Positions 30,030 through 39,894 of a stretch of 64,000 nucleotides of DNA are shown here, piece by piece. The position numbers and the translations under genes were made by a program. This stretch comes from Candidatus Methanomethylicaceae archaeon GD_Cm_T35_P0_bin.15 (GTDB lineage: Archaea > Thermoproteota > Methanomethylicia > Methanomethylicales > Methanomethylicaceae). A model generated the notes under the pieces. That model saw only the letters and a list, made by a program, of their open reading frames with translations. It did not search any database and was not told the origin of the DNA. Positions within the stretch are counted from its first letter, which is position 1, and every line of letters starts with the position of its first letter. The stretch is taken from positions 289,404 through 353,403 of the forward strand of contig JAULTD010000001.1 in the NCBI GenBank assembly GCA_038801785.1. The letters are read 5' to 3'.

Positions 30030-30260
30030 TTACTTAAAAAGTTTGTCGGTCGAGCGGGCAATCCGACGGGTTAGGATGCGGCCGCCGGGATTCGAACCCG
30101 GGATCCGAAGCTTGGGAAGGAAACTCTTGGAAAGAGTTTCATCAGAAACGGCAATTTTGATGATGTTCTGCGGGGTTGTACTGTACAGGGAAGCCAGCTC
30201 CTTCAGGCGCCCGGCTACGTCTTCAGGGACGGTCAGGACCTTGTAGCCTTTCCTGGGCAT
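30030..30260 (-). CDS. integrase N-terminal fragment Int(N), reading through the left att into flanking DNA
   Basis: Codons 1-47 (30260-30120) are element-encoded (MPRKGYKVLTVPEDVAGRLKELASLYSTTPQNIIKIAVSDETLSKSF). Codon 48 starts exactly at the first att base. The att translation LPKLRIPGSNPGGRI is the same at both ends. Confidence 0.7.
   Translation of the reverse strand: MPRKGYKVLTVPEDVAGRLKELASLYSTTPQNIIKIAVSDETLSKSFLPKLRIPGSNPGGRILTRRIARSTDKLFK
30074..30119. repeat. att site, left copy (orphan 3' half of tRNA-Gly(CCC))
   Basis: ggatgcggccgccgggattcgaacccgggatccgaagcttgggaag, identical to 39816-39861. The flanking bases differ on both sides. Confidence 0.95.
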
Positions 30261-30314: not shown

Positions 30315-31493
30315 TTACATATACTTACAGAGTCCAGCAATACGCTGGTGTAGCAGTTTTTTATCCTTAATATAACCTGCAGAATCTCGATCATTAATAT
30401 ATTCCCCACTGACTGCCAGTTCTTTCTTACTAGCTGTCACTTCATGAATTTTGGATAGATAATTAATTCTTGGTAGTGCCTTAGACAACTCCTTTTCATC
30501 GTTGGTAGCGGTAAGTAAGTAATGCAGATACTCCATATCTTTACTATTATTTTCAACAGCTAAGTCATGAGCTATTTTATCAGGATCAGGACTATAATGT
30601 ACAAAATCTTTGATGCCTAGATCATCCCTATCAAAGAACATTGTGGTTATTTTTCCTATTCCACCGCGTTTTCTTTTAATAAAGATACCATTTTCAATAC
30701 AGAAGATATCGCCAAGTCGGTATTCAGAGAAGTGTGTGCAAGATAAATGATCGTCAAACTTCCTCTTTACATCCGTCATAATTATCGCAATATTTTCGTT
30801 TTTTAGTGTGTCCCAAACATAATCGTAGTTTATAGCGACCTCTTCATAAGGATGGAAAATTAGGCCAAGGAGGTTAATAGTTCCACTCGCACTCTGGTTT
30901 TTAACGAAGTCAACTATTTGCTTAAAGTGCTTCTCATCATGTTTAAGATCCAAGAAAAAGATAGGTTCCATTCCTTCCTCCAGAATATTGTCATGTATTC
31001 CTTTGAGAATATCAAGTTGCGCTAAATTACCTAGATGAGGGACTGCCAGCAAGTTACTCTCTTTATTTTGAAGCGTGGTCTCTAGACTAAAAGTCATCCT
31101 TAGAAATTTCTCGTAGGTGGTCCTGCTTATACAAGATAGCCCACTTTGACATGGTTGCACCAGTATCAGAGGTAAAGATGCGTGGATCCCTCGTTTCATA
31201 ACGTTTTCAGCGTCAGTGTAGACATCTGAATACCCTTGGTTTTCCGAAAGAAACCTAGCTGTACAATCAGAACCTAATTTGTATGGCAGGAATAGGATGT
31301 CACTATCGTTAAGCAATGGTGTAGCAATGGGCACTTTCTTCTTGGCGTTGAGTTCCGATCGTGTTATGGATCTAAAAGGCGTTTTGAAGGTAATTCCATT
31401 TATTTGGATCTCGGTGGTCCTGCAACGATAGAATAGTTCAGACTTACGGTCTTTTTCATCAACATTATTTACGTGTACTTTAACTTTACTCAT
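30315..31493 (-). CDS. 392-aa protein of unknown function (third gene of the coupled operon)
   Basis: The ATG at 31493 overlaps the upstream stop as ATGA. AT-rich codon usage. Alternating hydrophobic strand-like segments (ILFLPY, LILVQP, LLAVPHL, IFFLDLK, LLGLIF, IAIIMTDVK). I recognise no family. Confidence 0.6.
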   Translation of the reverse strand: MSKVKVHVNNVDEKDRKSELFYRCRTTEIQINGITFKTPFRSITRSELNAKKKVPIATPLLNDSDILFLPYKLGSDCTARFLSENQGYSDVYTDAENVMKRGIHASLPLILVQPCQSGLSCISRTTYEKFLRMTFSLETTLQNKESNLLAVPHLGNLAQLDILKGIHDNILEEGMEPIFFLDLKHDEKHFKQIVDFVKNQSASGTINLLGLIFHPYEEVAINYDYVWDTLKNENIAIIMTDVKRKFDDHLSCTHFSEYRLGDIFCIENGIFIKRKRGGIGKITTMFFDRDDLGIKDFVHYSPDPDKIAHDLAVENNSKDMEYLHYLLTATNDEKELSKALPRINYLSKIHEVTASKKELAVSGEYINDRDSAGYIKDKKLLHQRIAGLCKYM

Positions 31494-32050
31494 CCTCGCC
31501 CGCGTCCCCAAGTAATTCCTTTGTATTTTTTCTTGAGTTCCGATTTATCTATAAACTCTGGATAATGTTCGTAAGCATAACGGAGTATGCCATCGGTACC
31601 TAGTTCATCCCACCCCTTCCGGTACGAACGGACTTTTTCAATAACGCGCTCGGGGATTTTACATAGTCGACCCTTGGCGTAGACGCTTCCCCTTTTAGTT
31701 AGTACAAAGGACTCATTTCGGGTATTTTTCTTACCCCTGCGTTCGATATACCCTGCGAGCTCAAGGTCTTTGAGAAGCTCCGCTATCTTGAAGCTGTACA
31801 TTCCAAATCGAAATGGGACATAGTGTAGGTCTTCAAGCGAAGTATTTTCGTAGTGTTTCCGTAGTATTTCCTCGTTAAGGAGGAACACTTCTTTCATGAA
31901 TAGAGTTCTACCATAAATTGGTTTATCATACGAGTTGAGTAATAACAGCACGATCTCGCTGGCAGTTAGCTGTGGAGGAGTTATTTTATCATATGCTCTA
32001 AGTGCCTCCTCAAAAGTGTAGAGTTTCGTCTTATCTTCTATAACGTTCAT
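31490..32050 (-). CDS. YwgA-like / Panacea (DUF4065)-like wHTH protein, copy 1
   Basis: GRTLFMKEVFLLNEE...YVPFRFGMYSFKIAELLKDLELAGYIERRG parallels the KLQKxxYxxxx...FxxYGPYSxxL...L...G pattern. The ATG at 32050 overlaps the upstream stop as ATGA. Confidence 0.55.
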   Translation of the reverse strand: MNVIEDKTKLYTFEEALRAYDKITPPQLTASEIVLLLLNSYDKPIYGRTLFMKEVFLLNEEILRKHYENTSLEDLHYVPFRFGMYSFKIAELLKDLELAGYIERRGKKNTRNESFVLTKRGSVYAKGRLCKIPERVIEKVRSYRKGWDELGTDGILRYAYEHYPEFIDKSELKKKYKGITWGRGRG

Positions 32051-32529
32051 AGTCGCACCTCTACCAGATCGCCCGCCTTGAAGTTTTTGCATGCATCCGT
32101 TTTAATCCTGTAAACTTTCAGGAAATAACGCTTGCCATTATGAAGCAACCATAGGTGTAGTGGTGGATTTCTCTGGGTTATTTCTTGCTTAATGCTATCT
32201 TGTAGCGATTGAGTTGGTCTAGTTATATACTGTAACTCCGTAACGAGGTCGGTCAAAGTGATTCCAGCTATCTTCATTTGCGCTACAGTTTCCTCTGGAT
32301 ACAAAATTCCCTCGGCAAAGCAACCGGGTTCGATTACTTCGTATTTAGTCCCGCAAGCGTGGCAATTCTTTTGTGGTATGCCCTGTACCGCATAGACGCG
32401 TGGTTTGCCAAAAGACATGGTACCGATTTTAGGAAGTTGTAGAGTCCAAGGGCTGCTTATTTGTTCAAGTGTGATCGTTTCTACAGAGCCGGCCCCACAA
32501 TAAGGGCAGTAAGCGGGCAAAGATGCCAA
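32047..32529 (-). CDS. Zn-ribbon protein, unknown function (first gene of the coupled operon)
   Basis: CPYC (aa 8-11) and CHAC (aa 56-59) pairs, followed by an ~90-aa C-terminal domain with no motif I recognise. Confidence 0.5.
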   Translation of the reverse strand: MASLPAYCPYCGAGSVETITLEQISSPWTLQLPKIGTMSFGKPRVYAVQGIPQKNCHACGTKYEVIEPGCFAEGILYPEETVAQMKIAGITLTDLVTELQYITRPTQSLQDSIKQEITQRNPPLHLWLLHNGKRYFLKVYRIKTDACKNFKAGDLVEVRL

Positions 32530-32968
32530 CCGAGCGCCTCACTTGAATTATGTCTGTTAATATAATTTAGACTGTTTATAAGCTATATCAAAAATTGTAC
32601 GATACCACAAAGTATCAGAGGTTAAGAGTCTAAACTAGTTATTTATTTTTATCAGACATAGGGTAACTATAACGCTCCAATTTTGGTAGCATTTATGAGT
32701 TTTATTTTCACCCCTCCCTCCCGCCGTAACCACCTTTCCCGAGTCCTTTTACCCTCCCGCCTACTACAAAGGACGGGAAGCGCTATGCATTCACAGCCGA
32801 CCCTGGAGGATCTGGGCGAGGAGCTCTTCAACGGGAAGGTAAAGTGCCAGAAGTGCGGGAAGTGGTGCATGTCCTGGCTCGGGCTGGCCGTACGCACTTC
32901 GGCAAGCGCCACGGGAAGCGCCTGGCGGAGGCCACGTGGGAGGACCTGGGGAAGGTGGGAGGATCCTG

Positions 32969-33130
32969 ATGGGCTGGAGGGAGTGCGAGGACGTCCTGGA
33001 GCTCGCGCTGCTAAAGATGCGCAGGTGCCGATCCGCGGAGGAGTGCAGGGGAGCGGTGGCGGATATCTTGGCGCTGGTCAAGGAAAGGAAGTTCGAGAGG
33101 CTGAAGGAGGAGCTGGGGGTGATGGAGTGA
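32969..33130 (+). CDS. possible small helical protein (53 aa) inside a GC-rich patch of the element
   Basis: MGWRECEDVLELALLKMRRCRSAEECRGAVADILALVKERKFERLKEELGVME. Its ATG overlaps the TGA of an upstream reading frame (TGATG). Confidence 0.3.
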   Translation: MGWRECEDVLELALLKMRRCRSAEECRGAVADILALVKERKFERLKEELGVME

Positions 33131-33254
33131 TGATAGTATGTTGATTAGACCTTGTCATTAAAAACTAAAATTTTTTAAAGCCAAAAAGTGATAGTGTCTT
33201 TATAATAAGAATATATTTTAGAGAAGATGGGTTTAGAAATGGGTTGGAATAGAA

Positions 33255-33698
33255 ATGGTCACCGGCGACAGAAAGAAACTCCTGACATATTTAAAATATA
33301 CTGGGAGCGAATCGATAGCTACCTTAAAAGACAGAAAAATAGCACAGAAAAAAATTTACCTTTTGCAGCGAATTGGACTGGACTTGGGATACCATTTCGG
33401 TTGGTACATCTATGGTCCGTATTCGCCTCGTCTAGCCGATGATCTATACGAAGCCTTTGATGCTCAAGACACTAAAGATATGCCGCTAGAGCAGGAAGAA
33501 AAAAATTGTTTAGACAAGTTGAACTCAATCCTGTCAAAACTTCCAGAAGACCAAAAGGACTATTGGCTTGAGCTCTTGGCATCTTTAGATGTAGTGAAAA
33601 AGAAAGAGCTTCTCAAGAAACTTAAACCGAATAAGTTTAAAGATGAAGATATCATGCGCAGTGAGGCTTTGCTTGAGAGATACTTAAGGCGAACGTAG
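33255..33698 (+). CDS. YwgA-like / Panacea (DUF4065)-like wHTH protein, copy 2
   Basis: KIAQKKIYLLQRIGLDLGYHFGWYIYGPYSPRLADDLYEAF closely follows the KLQKLLY...F.W.YGPYS..L pattern. Its stop TAG is immediately followed by the ATG of the HD gene. Confidence 0.65.
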   Translation: MVTGDRKKLLTYLKYTGSESIATLKDRKIAQKKIYLLQRIGLDLGYHFGWYIYGPYSPRLADDLYEAFDAQDTKDMPLEQEEKNCLDKLNSILSKLPEDQKDYWLELLASLDVVKKKELLKKLKPNKFKDEDIMRSEALLERYLRRT

Positions 33699-35069
33699 AT
33701 GCGTCCACATGACATTTATGATTCTGTACATGGCTACATCCACATAACAGCTGAGGGGGACGACATAGTAGCCGACCCTTATTTTCAGAGACTTAGGAGG
33801 GTACACCAGCTCGGCCTTGGAAACATGGTATTTCCCAGCGCAGAGCATACGCGTTTTTCCCATTCATTAGGCGTAATGCACATAGTGACAAAGATGGTAG
33901 ACGCATTGAACAATAACGTCGGAAGCAATTCACAGCTCATTGATAAGGACGATAAAAACCTCTTACGCGTCGCAGGTCTTCTTCACGATGTAGGGCATAT
34001 GCCTTTCTCGCACTTCTTGGAAGATGTAGCCAAATCTATGGGCAGTACTATCAGGCACGAAGATTTGGCTGGAAAGATAATTAAAGAGACCGGTCTTAAA
34101 GATGAGGTAGAAAAAGCGGTCGGTAATAAGGTGGAGGAAGTAATTTCCCTCATAAACAAAACTTATGAGTTGGACCTCGATGAAGCAGAAAAAAGAGGGC
34201 AAACTAACGCTCATGTGCTGAATAGTTTAATAAGTTCCGAGCTCGACGCTGACCGCATAGACTACTTGTTGAGGGATGCTTATCACATAGGCATCCCGTA
34301 CGGCAGTTTTGACCTAAATAGGATTTTAAATACCATGATCGTTGCAAAAACGGATGACGGTTCAATGGTTCCCGCTCTTAAAAGGAAGGCGAGACTTGCT
34401 GCCGAAAATTACATTATGGCCAGGCTGCACATGTATGAGGCGGTGTATCTTCACAAAACTATAGGTGCTTTCAATTGTATCCTAAGGGAGCTTTACATCC
34501 AAGGAATTAACGAAGGGATCCTTCCAAGCTTTGAGGAAATGGAAAGCCAAATAACCGAAGATTCTTTCTTCTGTACTTTTGACGATTATTATGTCCTCTC
34601 ACAAATACTCCATCACGATTACCGTAGCGATCACCATAAAAAATTGAAAAAGATGTTCATTGAAAGGCGCCCATTAAAACTTGCATATGAAGTAAAAAAA
34701 TCGAGAGGAACCGTAAATCCTCATGATGTAACCGCAAGTTGGATCGCATTAACTGACATATCAAAAATAAAGGATGAATTTTGCAAAAAGTACGGTCTCA
34801 AACCAGAATCAATTTTCTTTGAAGAGCCAAAGTTATCCGCTCTAAAGGTAAAACTAGATACTGCGGATTATGAGGATGCAATATACATCGAAGACGGCGA
34901 AGGCCACGCGGAGCCCATCAATAAGAATAAAGAGTCTTTCGTAGAATCCCTGCTAAAATATAACATGGATGTAAAGCGCGTTTACACATTTGAAGAGAGT
35001 GTAGAAAAAGTAAAAGAGGCAATAAAAAAAGAAATTGGAAAAAAGAAGGAAGAATACGATCTAAATTAA
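33699..35069 (+). CDS. HD-domain phosphohydrolase, SAMHD1 / dGTPase-like (COG1078 type)
   Basis: RFSHSLGVMHI, GLLHDVGHMPFSH and ELDADRIDYLLRDAY correspond to the H...HD...D metal-site motifs of SAMHD1-like dNTP triphosphohydrolases. Confidence 0.8.
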   Translation: MRPHDIYDSVHGYIHITAEGDDIVADPYFQRLRRVHQLGLGNMVFPSAEHTRFSHSLGVMHIVTKMVDALNNNVGSNSQLIDKDDKNLLRVAGLLHDVGHMPFSHFLEDVAKSMGSTIRHEDLAGKIIKETGLKDEVEKAVGNKVEEVISLINKTYELDLDEAEKRGQTNAHVLNSLISSELDADRIDYLLRDAYHIGIPYGSFDLNRILNTMIVAKTDDGSMVPALKRKARLAAENYIMARLHMYEAVYLHKTIGAFNCILRELYIQGINEGILPSFEEMESQITEDSFFCTFDDYYVLSQILHHDYRSDHHKKLKKMFIERRPLKLAYEVKKSRGTVNPHDVTASWIALTDISKIKDEFCKKYGLKPESIFFEEPKLSALKVKLDTADYEDAIYIEDGEGHAEPINKNKESFVESLLKYNMDVKRVYTFEESVEKVKEAIKKEIGKKKEEYDLN

Positions 35070-35218: not shown

Positions 35219-38200
35219 ATGACGTTTGAAGAGTCTTTTAAGAAATACCTGGAGGCAGCTTCCTCTGCCGGCACGCACCAGGCAAAGATGATCGCGTTTA
35301 CAATTTTCCTTAGCGAGGTCTTCGGAAAGTCGAGCTATGAGATCATCCAGGATGTAGAGAAGTACGTCTCAACTCGGGACAAAATAAGCATGATGACCAT
35401 AAAAGGCCGAATGGACATGCACTTTGGGCAGACAATCATCGAGTTCAAACTCAATCTTTCGCGCGAGCTGGAAGCGGCAAAGGAGGAGCTGGCCAGGTAC
35501 GCAAAGATCATGCGGAGCAATCGGCAGAAGGTCGGCGAGTGCATAGTGACGGACGGCCTGATCTTCAAAGTAATGGTTGTAGGCGACGAAGCAAAAGAAG
35601 TAAGAGAGATCGACTTCCGCAAGGTGCCGCCGGAAACGGCGATCCTTTTCCTCGACACTTACCTATTCAGCGCCAGGAAGAAGCCTACCGCAGAAGACCT
35701 CGCCATGCGGTTCGGCCCCGGCTCGCCGGTCTACGAGGAAGTAGTAGGCGGACTGACCCCTCTCTTCGGCAACATGCAAATTCCCATAAAGTTCCAGCTG
35801 TGGCAGAGGAACATGCAGATAGTTTACGGGAACGCGCCCCCAGACGAGGCTTTTGTGTCCCAGACTTATCTCATGGTCCTGGTAAGGCTGCTTTTACTGA
35901 GGTATTTGACCGGAAGAGCGCCCCCATTGCTCGACGGCCTGAACGGCAAAATCTTCCAAGAACAAGGAATCCACATCATTGAGGAAGATTTCTTCTCTTG
36001 GATTTTTGATCAGAGGTGCTGGCCGCAGATCGAACCTCTCGTCAATACGATGGTCGATGCGCTCGAATGCTACGATCTCAGCGAGATCGACGAAGACGTC
36101 TTCAAAGAGATCTACCAGGAAATCATAAAGCGCGGCGAGAGGCACAGGATCGGCGAATATTATACGCCTGAGTGGTTGGCGGAACTTACTCTCAACGAGG
36201 CAATTAAAGCGATAGGCCAGGAAAAGAAGTTCACGGTGCTGGACCCCGCGTGCGGCTCAGGCACGTTCCTGACGAAGGCAGTCATCCATCTGAAGAGGAA
36301 CGGGGCTTCGCTCAAAGAAGTCTTGGAAAGCGTTTACGGGATAGATTTGAATCCGCTGGCCATAGAGATTTCGAGGACAAACTACCTCCTGGCGCTTGGC
36401 AGGCTCATTGAGAAGCGGAAAGGGCCGATTTTCATACCCGTGTTCATGGCGGATTCGATAAAGCTGCCGGATGTCCGTAGAGAGGTCATGTACGGCGAGC
36501 CCATCCTCGCCATAGACGTCGACGAGAAATTGCAGCTGAACCTCCCGTTGGAAGTAGCGCTGGATGACAACAAACTGAAAGAGGACCTGAAGCTTTTCGA
36601 GGATATCCTGAGGGAGTACAGGACGGGCAGACTGTCTAAACCGCTGGCGCTCAAGGCCTTTGAAAGCATGTGCGGGCACAGGGAGGCGCTCAAGGAAATA
36701 CTGAAGGAAACGCTGCAGAAGATAATGGATCTAATAGACGTCGACAAGGACTCGATCTGGGTCTTCATGATGCGCAATATTTACGCGCCGTTGAGGATGA
36801 AAGAGAAAAAGTTCGACTTGGTCGTCGGGAACCCTCCCTGGGTGTCGTTCAAGTTCATCGAAAATGTCGAGTACCAGAAATTTATCAAAAAGACGGTGTT
36901 CGAATATGGGCTATTGAGTCCAAAACAAACGGACCTTTTCACGCAGATTGACACATCAACTGCATTCTACACCAAGGTAGCTGACATTTATCTTAAGGAT
37001 AGCGGCATCCTGGCGTTCGTCATGCCCAAGAGCGTCCTCACAGGAGCCAAACAGCATGAGGCATTCAAGAAACAACTCCATCCACCAATGAGGGTTTTGG
37101 GAATACACGACGTGGGTGAGGTTAAACCCCTTTTCAACGTAAAGGCGTGCATAATTATTGCCCAGAAAGGGGGAGCGACTACTTTTCCAGTGCCAGCGGG
37201 CATATGGTCTGGCGAATTGTCCAAGAAAAACGCTTTACTAAAAGACGCCAAGAAGGTTCTTGAATTGAGGGAGTCAAAGTATGTTCCACCAAAAAAGAGT
37301 GATAAAACGAGCCCGTATCATGGTGAGATGCTCTCTGGTGCAGGGATTTATCCTCGGACTTTATGGTTTGTGAAATTCGTGCCAAGCAGCTTTGGGGTCA
37401 ATCTAGAAGAGCCTTTGGTAGAAAGCCTGATTTTGCCCGACGCTAAGGCGCCTTGGAAGAGCGTAATGCTGAAGGGCAGCGTTGAGAAAGATTTTGTATT
37501 TGCCACAATGACCGGAAAGGATTTGCTCCCCTTCAAGCCGCAGTTCAAGGCGGTCGTTCTTCCGATTGAAAAAGGTTCCTACAAATACAAGATTCTCACT
37601 CCGGAGGAGTTAAGGGGAAAGGGCAAGTTAAAGATGGCAAATTGGGTTGAGACAGCAAATAAATATTGGTCTTCACTGGCGACAAAGACTTCGATAGCAA
37701 ACTTTCCCACCCCAATGGATTACATGAACTACCACAATAAGCTAGAGCTGCAAAGGACGAACCTTCGTTATTACGTGGTTTATACCGCGTCCGGTACACA
37801 CATCGCGGCTGCTGTAGTGGATACAAAAAACCTACCGCCGTTCCAGGTCGACGGCGCCAAGATACGCCCCAACGGCTTCGTCGCGGATTATAAGACCTTC
37901 TGGTTCGGCACGAATAATGCAAATGAAGCATCTTACTTGGTGGCCATATTGAACTCGAATGTTATGGATGAGATGATCAAGCCGCACCAGTCAGAAGGGG
38001 CCTTTGGAGCAAGAGACATCTGCAGATTGCCCTTCGAGTTCAACATACCTGAATACGACCCAAACAACGGTATTCACACAGCGCTTGCCGTACTGGGGGC
38101 CGAAGCAGCGAAGGAAGCGGATCGCCTCCCCAGAGCGTCCAGGATGAAAATAAAGGCGAAGATTCCCCAGATGCAGATGATAGATGAACTTACCAAGAAA

Positions 38201-38272
38201 CTATTAATGCAAAATAGATCAGACGTCTTGAGGCGTCAGGAATTAACTGATAAACGATCTAACGATTGCTAA
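35219..38272 (+). CDS. MmeI-like type IIL/IIG restriction-modification enzyme (nuclease, N6-adenine methyltransferase and TRD in one chain)
   Basis: N-terminus QAKMIAFTIFLSEVFGK...GRMDMHFGQTIIEFK gives a D-x8-ExK nuclease motif, like MmeI. Methyltransferase motif I LDPACGSGTFL and motif IV VVGNPPWV. A long C-terminal target-recognition region follows. Confidence 0.75.
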   Translation: MTFEESFKKYLEAASSAGTHQAKMIAFTIFLSEVFGKSSYEIIQDVEKYVSTRDKISMMTIKGRMDMHFGQTIIEFKLNLSRELEAAKEELARYAKIMRSNRQKVGECIVTDGLIFKVMVVGDEAKEVREIDFRKVPPETAILFLDTYLFSARKKPTAEDLAMRFGPGSPVYEEVVGGLTPLFGNMQIPIKFQLWQRNMQIVYGNAPPDEAFVSQTYLMVLVRLLLLRYLTGRAPPLLDGLNGKIFQEQGIHIIEEDFFSWIFDQRCWPQIEPLVNTMVDALECYDLSEIDEDVFKEIYQEIIKRGERHRIGEYYTPEWLAELTLNEAIKAIGQEKKFTVLDPACGSGTFLTKAVIHLKRNGASLKEVLESVYGIDLNPLAIEISRTNYLLALGRLIEKRKGPIFIPVFMADSIKLPDVRREVMYGEPILAIDVDEKLQLNLPLEVALDDNKLKEDLKLFEDILREYRTGRLSKPLALKAFESMCGHREALKEILKETLQKIMDLIDVDKDSIWVFMMRNIYAPLRMKEKKFDLVVGNPPWVSFKFIENVEYQKFIKKTVFEYGLLSPKQTDLFTQIDTSTAFYTKVADIYLKDSGILAFVMPKSVLTGAKQHEAFKKQLHPPMRVLGIHDVGEVKPLFNVKACIIIAQKGGATTFPVPAGIWSGELSKKNALLKDAKKVLELRESKYVPPKKSDKTSPYHGEMLSGAGIYPRTLWFVKFVPSSFGVNLEEPLVESLILPDAKAPWKSVMLKGSVEKDFVFATMTGKDLLPFKPQFKAVVLPIEKGSYKYKILTPEELRGKGKLKMANWVETANKYWSSLATKTSIANFPTPMDYMNYHNKLELQRTNLRYYVVYTASGTHIAAAVVDTKNLPPFQVDGAKIRPNGFVADYKTFWFGTNNANEASYLVAILNSNVMDEMIKPHQSEGAFGARDICRLPFEFNIPEYDPNNGIHTALAVLGAEAAKEADRLPRASRMKIKAKIPQMQMIDELTKKLLMQNRSDVLRRQELTDKRSNDC

Positions 38273-38949: not shown

Positions 38950-39765
38950 TTATGTTAGAACCTTCAGCCCTGCCCGGTCGTATATTGCCTTAAGGTTTTC
39001 AGGCGAATAATCGCTGTAATGCTTGGCCAGCACAGACCGGGGGACCCTGCCCTGGAAGGCGTCGATGAACCTGTCTGCCACGCCCAGACGGGCCATCTCA
39101 TTCGAAAACCAGAACCTCAGCACTTTGGGAGTTATCTTCAGCCCGGTCTTCTTCTGGGCTATGACGAAGAGGCAGGACTTGTCGGAGCCTCTGATAGAGA
39201 AGAGGTTCTCGGACTTGTGCTTGCTTTTCATCCACGCCCCCAACAGGTCCTCGAACTCGCCGTTGTAGAACGTCATGAAGGACCTCTTGGTCCTGGTGGC
39301 ATGCTGGGGAGTGATCATCCTCAGGCCAGTGTTTACGTTAGAGACCTTCAGCCCCAGCAGCTCGGCCCTTCTCAACCCGGTGACAGCGTACCCCACGAAT
39401 GCCAGCCGCTCGTAGTCCTCATCCAGGGCAGAGTAGAACTCTGCGAGCTCTTTCCTGGAGGGCATGCTCATTATGGGCGGGTCCACCTGCTTTATCTTGA
39501 AAGGCAGCTTCACGTCCTGATACTTGGCATAGGCGATAAACGACTTCAGGTAGTTGTTGAAGGTGTTCGGGTTCTCTAACTGCGCCAGGAAGGAGCGCAT
39601 GGCGTCTATCGTGAACGGGTTTGCTGAGAGGTACTTGCGGAGGTTTCCGGTGTACTTCTGGGCGGTCTTCCGGCTTATGTCCAGGTCAGTCAGGCAGAAC
39701 TCCTGGAACTTCAGTACTGTACCAGCATCGAACCCTGTACTGTACCCGTTTCGCGGTTGTTGCAA
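38950..39765 (-). CDS. integrase C-terminal fragment Int(C), tyrosine recombinase catalytic domain
   Basis: GLRRAELLGLK (catalytic Arg region), and RVPRSVLAKHY near the C-terminus (second Arg and Tyr). The track start is a TTG. The frame stays open upstream through the att copy as far as a TAG at 39865-39867. Confidence 0.8.
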   Translation of the reverse strand: MQQPRNGYSTGFDAGTVLKFQEFCLTDLDISRKTAQKYTGNLRKYLSANPFTIDAMRSFLAQLENPNTFNNYLKSFIAYAKYQDVKLPFKIKQVDPPIMSMPSRKELAEFYSALDEDYERLAFVGYAVTGLRRAELLGLKVSNVNTGLRMITPQHATRTKRSFMTFYNGEFEDLLGAWMKSKHKSENLFSIRGSDKSCLFVIAQKKTGLKITPKVLRFWFSNEMARLGVADRFIDAFQGRVPRSVLAKHYSDYSPENLKAIYDRAGLKVLT

Positions 39766-39815: not shown

Positions 39816-39861
39816 GGATGCGGCCGCCGGGATTCGAACCCGGGATCCGAAGCTTGGGAAG
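39816..39861. repeat. att site, right copy (within the intact tRNA-Gly)
   Basis: Identical 46-mer to 30074-30119. Confidence 0.95.
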
Positions 39862-39894
39862 CTTCTATCCTAGACCGGACTAGACCACGGCCGC
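39819..39894 (-). tRNA. tRNA-Gly (anticodon CCC), no encoded CCA
   Basis: Reverse complement: GCGGCCG acceptor stem, anticodon arm GAAGC-TTCCCAA-GCTTC, T-arm CCGGG-TTCGAAT-CCCGG, CGGCCGC, discriminator A. Confidence 0.9.

Follow-up and report, generated by a model that had tools for sequence, protein, structure and literature searches.

Two distant Panacea relatives paired with an HD phosphohydrolase and a transglycosylase-like protein on an archaeal integrative element: candidate defence or toxin-antitoxin-like modules

Two gene pairs on an integrative element

We analysed a 64,000-nucleotide stretch (the window) of contig JAULTD010000001.1, positions 289,404 to 353,403, from the assembly of Candidatus Methanomethylicaceae archaeon GD_Cm_T35_P0_bin.15 (GCA_038801785.1, here G000). 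It carries two small genes, S1 and S2, which encode distant members of the Panacea/YwgA/DarG-C superfamily and which each stand directly upstream of a different larger gene, forming two candidate modules in which the small protein may keep its partner in check. Module A consists of a zinc-ribbon (Zn-ribbon) gene, S1 and a gene for a diverged tRNA-guanine transglycosylase (TGT)-like protein of 392 amino acids (aa), and module B of S2 and an HD phosphohydrolase gene:

31490-32050, minus strand: S1, 186-aa Panacea/YwgA/DarG-C-like winged-helix protein (profile and fold evidence), with a WG[RK]G[RK]G tail
33255-33698, plus strand: S2, 147-aa YwgA/DarG-C/Panacea-like protein (profile evidence; E 7.2e-5 to the Panacea hidden Markov model, HMM, built here)
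30315-31493, minus strand: 392-aa protein assigned by profile comparison to a diverged branch of the TGT superfamily (tRNA-guanine transglycosylase/DpdA-like TIM barrel), without CxCxxC
32047-32529, minus strand: 160-aa Zn-ribbon protein (CPYC...CHAC), opening the three-gene cassette
33699-35069, plus strand: 456-aa HD phosphohydrolase of the EF1143/SAMHD1 type (HD and HD_assoc_2 domains; Pfam and PDB matches)

The S1 stop codon overlaps the ATG of the 392-aa gene (ggATGAgt, 31490-31493), the stop codon of the Zn-ribbon gene overlaps the S1 ATG (ctATGAac, 32047-32050), and the ATG of the HD gene (33699) abuts the S2 stop codon (TAG, 33696-33698) with no gap. A preliminary description of this locus had reported both small open reading frames with these coordinates, strands and lengths, and had placed each directly upstream of a larger gene; both points stand. 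Gene adjacency of the kind used to delimit PanA-PanT pairs (PMC8832971) is seen at both junctions as overlap or abutment in the window, and recurs at over 10 loci with S1 and at six or more with S2.

Both gene pairs lie on a 9.7-kb integrative element at a tRNA-Gly gene, as indicated by attachment (att) repeats, the tRNA gene itself and an integrase. A perfect 46-nt direct repeat (100% identical copies at 30074-30119 and 39816-39861) bounds an island at approximately 30-39 kb with 41-50% G+C, compared to approximately 60% G+C for the window. Its remaining features are:

30074-30119: left copy of the 46-nt repeat (att site), duplicating the 3' part of tRNA-Gly
39816-39894, minus strand: tRNA-Gly(CCC) (39819-39894) and right copy of the 46-nt repeat (39816-39861), the repeat being the 3' part of the tRNA
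38950-39765, minus strand: archaeal tyrosine integrase, catalytic part (PF16795 1.8e-7, PF00589 1.1e-5)
35219-38272, plus strand: 1017-aa type IIG (MmeI/Eco57I-like) restriction-modification (RM) protein (PADLOC REase_MTase_IIG 8.3e-90; Pfam N6_Mtase, Eco57I, MmeI_Mtase)

The cargo is laid out as a minus-strand operon running from 32529 to 30315 (Zn-ribbon, S1, 392-aa gene), the plus-strand genes S2 and HD, and the type IIG RM gene. A 76-aa open reading frame at 30030-30260 was set aside, as it overlaps the att repeat. The host assembly comprises 1.49 Mb in 8 contigs and is 75% complete; this archaeon encodes ArcTGT, QueC (1.2e-54), a pyruvoyl arginine decarboxylase and a TackOD1 protein.

Relationship of S1 and S2 to Panacea and the DarG C-terminal domain

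Panacea, YwgA and the C-terminal domain of DarG (DarG-C) share a fold derived from the winged helix, which in PanA and DarG binds and silences the cognate toxin. S1 and S2 display no significant pairwise similarity (BLASTP E=35), and comparison of their family alignments (18 S1 and 34 S2 relatives) by hhalign is borderline (E 0.01 and 0.0025, probability 4-12%), pairing R-x-x-QKKIYLLQ with GRTLLMKEVFLL and GPYSP with GPYSF. The shared core pattern noticed by eye in the preliminary description is therefore recovered as motifs that align profile to profile, but not as significant similarity between the two sequences. However, both families match the same third parties, and their likeness thus goes beyond chance. 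Against a Panacea profile built from seven archaeal proteins that pass the Pfam PF13274 threshold, the S1 family reached an hhalign probability of 96.6% (E 5.5e-10) and the S2 family one of 76% (E 2.3e-5), compared to P values of 0.39-0.81 for reversed or unrelated control alignments. PADLOC PDC-M19A is matched over the same profile region by S1 (6.4e-9) and S2 (7.4e-4), as is the same part of phrog_14939 (1.9e-7 and 6e-3, respectively). The S2 profile also matches DarG-C by sequence (PDB 7yk3_B, E 1.4e-3; WLELLAS vs ELLAST), as do the DarG models of PADLOC and NCBIfam with S2, and the AlphaFold model of S1 (pLDDT 85.6) has the same chain as its best PDB match by Foldseek (E 2.8e-4, 184 columns, TM-score 0.47, identity 16-17%). 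S1 homologues elsewhere match the Panacea HMM built here with E values of 1e-12 to 5e-5, and relatives of both S1 and S2 carry the JGI label 'uncharacterized protein YwgA', a COG name.

On this profile-profile and fold evidence, S1 and S2 are distant members of the Panacea/YwgA/DarG-C superfamily, although by the curated model they are not members of PF13274. That model is weakly matched by 4 of the 18 S1 relatives (best E 0.016), by none of the 34 S2 relatives, and by nothing in a scan of the whole G000 genome. The earlier assignment to Panacea/YwgA consequently holds at the level of profiles and fold but not at the Pfam threshold.

Panacea domains are reported to bind directly to a wide range of unrelated toxins and thereby neutralise them (Kurata et al. 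2022, PMC8832971). The proteins described here share with PanA-PanT systems (DUF4065, PF13274; SocA) a common core, in which a K/R-x-hydrophobic helix is followed by [FY]GP[YF]S and a winged helix, as well as tight pairing with many unrelated enzymes in mobile or patchy loci, and three-gene variants of PanA-PanT are known. They differ in that S1 and S2 lie below the Pfam threshold and in that S1 possesses an extra conserved C-terminal helix and WGRGRG tail. The main text of PMC8832971 mentions no HD or transglycosylase partner; its Pfam-threshold search would have missed S1 and S2, since both are below the PF13274 threshold. The likeness to DarG lies in the DarT-binding domain, which is the best solved-structure match of S1, a profile match of S2 by sequence, and the toxin's partner in the deposited DarT-DarG complex (7yk3). 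Only this C-terminal region of DarG is matched, short of the DarTG definition (NCBIfam NF048014 scores 21.8 bits over positions 189-226 of 338, the cut-off being 250), and no macrodomain or DarT occurs among the neighbouring genes in the window. A likeness to YwgA extends from the shared label to gene order, in that the S2-HD pairing recurs widely; according to the preliminary description, ywgA of Bacillus subtilis would likewise lie next to the HD gene ywfO. Literature searches on ywgA, ywfO, PDC-M19 and HD_assoc_2 returned nothing relevant, and no paper on either module was found in the searches made.

The S1 tail is distinctive. In all 18 S1 relatives the last residues are an invariant W-G-[RK]-G-[RK]-G, with a conserved GWDELGTDGILRYVY just before it (S1 C-terminus, 31490-31510). 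Neither S2 nor canonical Panacea proteins have this tail, which is a candidate interaction or nucleic-acid-binding motif. In addition, the C-terminal positions 431-552 (of 554) of PADLOC PDLC03184, a type I specificity-subunit model, match S1 (E 5e-6), which implies natural HsdS-Panacea-like fusions and suggests that an S1-like domain can be fused to HsdS.

An alternative is that S1 and S2 are ordinary winged-helix autoregulators, in which case their likeness to Panacea and DarG-C would reflect fold ancestry and the enzymes would be constitutive and housekeeping-type, or simply cargo. Weak Pfam winged helix-turn-helix matches (HTH_27, DUF4364, PadR-like) occur in S1 relatives, Foldseek lists MarR/PadR regulators after 7yk3, and an extra small PadR/HxlR gene upstream in some cassettes shows that such operons come under winged helix-turn-helix control. 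Yet S1 is kept even in the cassettes where this separate regulator is present, over large distances S1 and S2 vary together with the partner genes that they overlap, a Panacea-like partner accompanies accessory HD genes only (0 of 23 core copies examined, see below), and what S1 and S2 match best, in structure and in sequence, is a domain that binds a toxin rather than a DNA-bound regulator. We therefore consider this explanation distinctly improbable.

The three-gene cassette and its transglycosylase-like protein

S1 and its partner were initially taken as a two-gene unit, but the cassette has three genes: Zn-ribbon, S1 and a gene for a protein of approximately 390 aa. Every S1 relative examined has a homologous gene for a 381-408-aa protein directly downstream, overlapping or abutting it, and all but one have a homologous Zn-ribbon gene upstream. 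Loci with a Zn-ribbon homologue ahead of S1 are L003, L005, L011, L012, L015-L018, L065 and L073-L076. A genome search with the 392-aa family profile, which was independent of S1 and covered 401 genomes in each of two phyla, found the family in 9/401 genomes of the window's phylum and in 7/401 genomes of the phylum of an Archaeoglobus metagenome-assembled genome. Apart from G000 itself, it was found in none of 31 genomes of the window's taxonomic family. Among the close members recovered by this profile, 10 of 11 have an S1-type gene directly upstream. The cassette is thus rare, patchy and accessory.

The 392-aa protein had been left without assignment in the preliminary description; profile comparisons now identify it as a diverged TGT-superfamily protein. 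Taken alone, it finds nothing useful in Pfam, PADLOC, NCBIfam or PHROGs, including no match to PF01702. A word-indexed search gave a single relative, and an exhaustive profile search was needed to recover 235 representative clusters, nearly all of 370-430 aa. The AlphaFold model (11 sequences, pLDDT 74.9) shows a beta/alpha barrel to which a beta-sheet is added at the N-terminus and a bundle of helices at the C-terminus; the segment at 246-282 is unreliable (pLDDT below 50). Foldseek against PDB and BFVD returned only assorted TIM barrels (E of 6e-3 or higher), with a phage queuine tRNA-ribosyltransferase at rank 21 (E 0.11); these matches are generic, and the fold search alone therefore gives no support for a TGT. 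Nor did sequence-profile searches of PDB with the family alignments find a TGT, the result being a weak match to a sugar-isomerase TIM barrel.

The assignment follows from a chain of profiles, leading from the window clade to a zinc-keeping branch and from there to ArcTGT, and from matches to PF01702 and to an ArcTGT HMM. When 81 members were compared with Pfam, PF01702 (TGT) was the top recurrent family (2 members, best E 6.2e-5). Against NCBIfam the same 81 gave single-member TGT matches only (0.034 and 0.082), and against PADLOC no model was matched in more than one member (best E 0.0019), leaving no recurrent defence family. Dozens of members match the ArcTGT HMM, which we built from 30 genomes, at one C-terminal region comprising the zinc subdomain and the next helix (best E 2.5e-6), and several also match it at the N-terminal R..G.l.t..G.veTP strand. 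C-x-C-P-x-C...H is kept in 13 of 124 full-length representatives; in the window protein, and in 111/124 representatives, CxCxxC is absent and only the His is kept (SKIHEV). The zinc-keeping branch aligns with ArcTGT by hhalign with a probability of 92% (E 6.6e-7, 291 columns), or 97% in global mode (E 1.2e-10; 291-319 columns across modes), compared to 0.13 for a reversed control, and the window clade aligns with the zinc-keeping branch at E 4.4e-45. On these profiles the 392-aa family is a diverged branch of the TGT/DpdA superfamily. Like ArcTGT, with which it aligns across the barrel, it has an N-terminal R..L.I...G..I.TP, a G-x-D strand and a C-terminal H-[NE]-x helix; unlike recognised members of the superfamily, it falls below the PF01702 and NCBIfam thresholds, the window clade lacks the zinc cysteines, and the canonical aspartates are unaligned. 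Near-invariant residues of the family are P39, R41, K51, P152, R244, H254, D262, F287, E351, E358 and Y374. The invariant Asp (window D262) aligns three residues before the canonical Asp, at the G-x-D position, in an alignment that is remote and in a segment (246-282) where the model is poor.

Other TGT-like proteins were encountered in the course of these searches. Stand-alone proteins of approximately 365-370 aa, which carry no functional annotation, keep CxCxxC...H and GVD[ST] (L070:1471-2568, L071:1441-2541, L079:1495-2607, L057:2637-3749). Three of them (L070, L071, L079) are more distant relatives that retain the zinc motif and lie beside neither an S1/Panacea-like nor a Zn-ribbon gene. 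The L057 protein matches the ArcTGT HMM but not the 392-aa family profile. In the few loci available, cassette proteins thus combine a Zn-ribbon gene with the loss of CxCxxC, whereas their stand-alone relatives have CxCxxC and no Zn-ribbon gene. The Zn-ribbon protein might be the zinc subdomain of the TGT-like protein, encoded separately, but this idea was rejected, as hhalign of the zinc-keeping branch against the Zn-ribbon alignment gave a P value of 0.09. Proteins of 303-311 aa at L058:3204-4139 and L059:2971-3882 match two separate parts of the ArcTGT HMM (E 5e-15 to 7e-18) and represent another truncated TGT paralogue, in genomes that also have a full-length ArcTGT.

Remodelled TGT-fold proteins have precedents in defence, including DpdA (PMC10164549), a TGT in BREX-related systems (PMC12839542) and Cap10 of type IV CBASS (bioRxiv 10.1101/2025.04.06.647259). 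The 392-aa family resembles DpdA and Cap10 in its defence-type neighbourhoods and, like Cap10, may be a remodelled, non-canonical TGT. It differs from these systems in its partners, as the cassette contains no QueC-, DpdB- or CD-NTase-like protein and instead has Panacea-like and Zn-ribbon proteins. One possibility is that the cassette is a DNA or tRNA modification module, in which a DpdA-like TGT-fold enzyme would insert a 7-deazaguanine (preQ0 of the host archaeosine pathway) into DNA, while S1, through its winged helix, and the Zn-ribbon protein would serve as subunits for DNA targeting or loading, providing a second self-mark or an anti-restriction mark for the neighbouring RM system. The homology spans the whole catalytic domain, the cassette can lie between hsdM and hsdS in type I RM operons, and preQ0 should be available in the host, which encodes QueC and ArcTGT; moreover, TGT homologues modify DNA in Dpd and have been proposed to do likewise in BREX-related systems (PMC10164549, PMC12839542). 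However, the positions of the Zymomonas mobilis aspartates D102, D156 and D280 are not Asp in this family (although this is not decisive, since the active-site loop is poorly modelled), the cassette has no DpdB- or DpdC-like gene, and no DpdA model was among the PADLOC and NCBIfam matches of the 81 members. We regard such a modification role as unlikely.

The operon position raises a further alternative. Four loci, one on an ENA metagenome contig (L003) and three from Archaeoglobaceae (L011, L012, L015), have the cassette embedded in a type I RM operon, where hsdM and hsdS flank it and stop codons overlap start codons. The same position is occupied by prrC, and the TGT-fold protein could by analogy be a latent tRNA-targeting effector that is restrained, via S1, by the restriction complex and freed when a virus disables restriction. 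The S1-like domain at the C-terminus of PDLC03184 and the tRNA-binding nature of the TGT fold are in keeping with such a guard of the RM system, which would be compatible with a keeper role for S1. Against it, there is no type I RM neighbour in the window or in L001, L005, L016 and L019, so that the cassette must also work alone; we give this version only a slim chance. Other neighbours of the cassette are a type IIG enzyme (L017), an NgoPII RM system with Vsr and DndB (L018) and an element with an integrase and RHH protein (L016), and a type IIG RM gene lies near one or other module in the window, L010 and L017.

Accessory HD phosphohydrolases and the proposed keeper role

The partner of S2 is readily classified. 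It contains Pfam domains PF01966 HD (55.5 bits, cut-off 22) and PF19276 HD_assoc_2 (29.8 bits, cut-off 23.1), matches solved structures from Aquifex (2hek, 1.3e-38) and Enterococcus (EF1143, 2o6i, 6.5e-35) as well as SAMHD1 (5e-23), and has an intact H...HD...D metal site (H55, H95-D96, D183/D185), in agreement with the SAMHD1-like label given to it initially. Its likeness to the SAMHD1 and EF1143 dNTP triphosphohydrolases and to single-gene anti-phage dGTPases lies in these domains, metal ligands and strong PDB matches and in its location on a mobile element beside RM genes. It differs from the single-gene anti-phage dGTPases in having a Panacea-like partner gene and in lying far below the cut-offs of their models (NCBIfam NF041026 and NF003701, 27-29 bits against 383-400, HD core only); the PADLOC dGTPase model likewise matches HD residues 28-110 only.

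All four loci found via S2 relatives have an S2-type gene directly upstream of an HD+HD_assoc_2 gene (434-497 aa), and their neighbours include a PLD-SNF2 helicase, AAA_15/DUF4276, UvrD, Fic, a type IIG methylase and HEPN_AbiV. An HD homologue with 30-36% identity is present in 194/201 genomes of the phylum and is thus a core gene, but an S2/Panacea-like neighbour occurs in only 4 of the best 29 HD loci, all four in genomes with two HD copies. One of the four HD-adjacent small proteins is a bona fide Panacea by the HMM built here (2.3e-15). In a maximum likelihood tree, the 23 partner-less core HDs form a single clade (100/99) that tracks taxonomy, with a Panacea-like partner beside none of the 23 copies examined, while all eight partner-associated HDs, including that of the window, fall outside this clade on long branches. 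The Panacea-like partner therefore travels with accessory, fast-evolving HD paralogues, and the HD gene of the window is, by its place in the tree, an accessory long-branch paralogue of a core archaeal gene.

Each pairing, of S1 with the TGT-like gene and of S2 with the HD gene, is thus conserved in many other genomes, and the preliminary proposal of one small domain with unrelated downstream partners holds, as described for Panacea (PMC8832971). Homology, synteny, distribution and defence context lead us to favour, with moderate confidence, a keeper-effector arrangement for both modules, and suggest two previously undescribed defence or toxin-antitoxin-like modules. We propose that the 9.7-kb element carries two independent enzyme-plus-keeper modules beside its type IIG restriction enzyme, each small gene being translationally coupled to a different enzyme. 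Each small protein would bind its partner and hold it in an inactive or regulated state, to be released upon a trigger such as infection by a virus or loss of the element. The freed HD enzyme would then hydrolyse (d)NTPs and so deplete nucleotides, and the TGT-fold protein may act on, bind or sense a base in tRNA or DNA.

Several observations weigh against this arrangement. S1 and S2 lie below the PF13274 gathering threshold (25.7 bits), with no match at E<=1, and the seven-protein Panacea profile, which is thin, does not find DarG-C in PDB. The next fold matches of S1 after 7yk3 are DNA-binding winged-helix regulators of the MarR/PadR type, so that a purely transcriptional role for S1 is possible. 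Gene order varies, the Panacea-like gene being upstream in two and downstream in two of four HD loci, and two long-branch HDs (L088, L103) have no detected partner. Lastly, in Z. mobilis TGT D102 and D280 are catalytic and D156 binds substrate; the remote hhalign alignment places Tyr, Ser-Ile-Pro and Ser/Cys/Val of the 392-aa family opposite D102, D156 and D280, respectively. The window clade is thus without the zinc site as well as, by this alignment, the canonical aspartates, and the role of the 392-aa protein may accordingly be to bind without catalysis, in which case it would not be a toxin.

If the small proteins are indeed keepers, the Panacea principle of one neutraliser fold with many effectors would extend to archaea and would take in two effector classes with which it has so far not been connected, one made up of SAMHD1-type nucleotide hydrolases and the other represented by a TGT-fold protein. 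Under a more specific scheme, which we put forward tentatively, the Zn-ribbon/Panacea-like/TGT-fold cassette would provide archaea with immunity or addiction by a module not described before and functionally tied to type I restriction operons; its retooled effector (without zinc site and canonical aspartates) would attack or sense a tRNA or DNA nucleobase and be silenced by its Panacea-type partner. Accessory SAMHD1-like dNTPases of archaea would likewise be enabled by Panacea-type partners to act as effectors that deplete nucleotides. The TGT-fold effector in particular has a fair chance of being new. Its family of approximately 235 representative clusters recurs inside type I restriction operons without a Pfam or NCBIfam match at threshold, and its chemistry could reveal a new nucleic-acid base transaction in virus-host conflict, which would join the DNA deazaguanine insertion of DpdA and the protein deazaguanylation of Cap10. 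The accessory and core HD copies for their part offer a clean natural experiment on the passage from housekeeping nucleotide hydrolase to regulated defence effector.

Three further observations concern the HD genes. The island copy is the only HD homologue found in G000, whereas 17/17 sampled genomes of the same taxonomic family carry the core copy (36% identity); with the assembly 75% complete, the core gene either lies in the missing 25% or has been replaced by the island copy. At L096 (G119:C192), an HD gene 42% identical to that of the window contains an in-frame TAG and is followed by the bona fide Panacea gene (E 2.3e-15), and this locus may represent module B in reversed gene order, either in decay or after recoding. 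Finally, in at least six genomes belonging to one family (G060, G189, G012, G140, G196, G100) the core HD gene is interrupted by a single in-frame TGA, and in G001 by a TAA; that the TGA recurs points to a conserved event (a split, recoding or something programmed) more than to an error of assembly.

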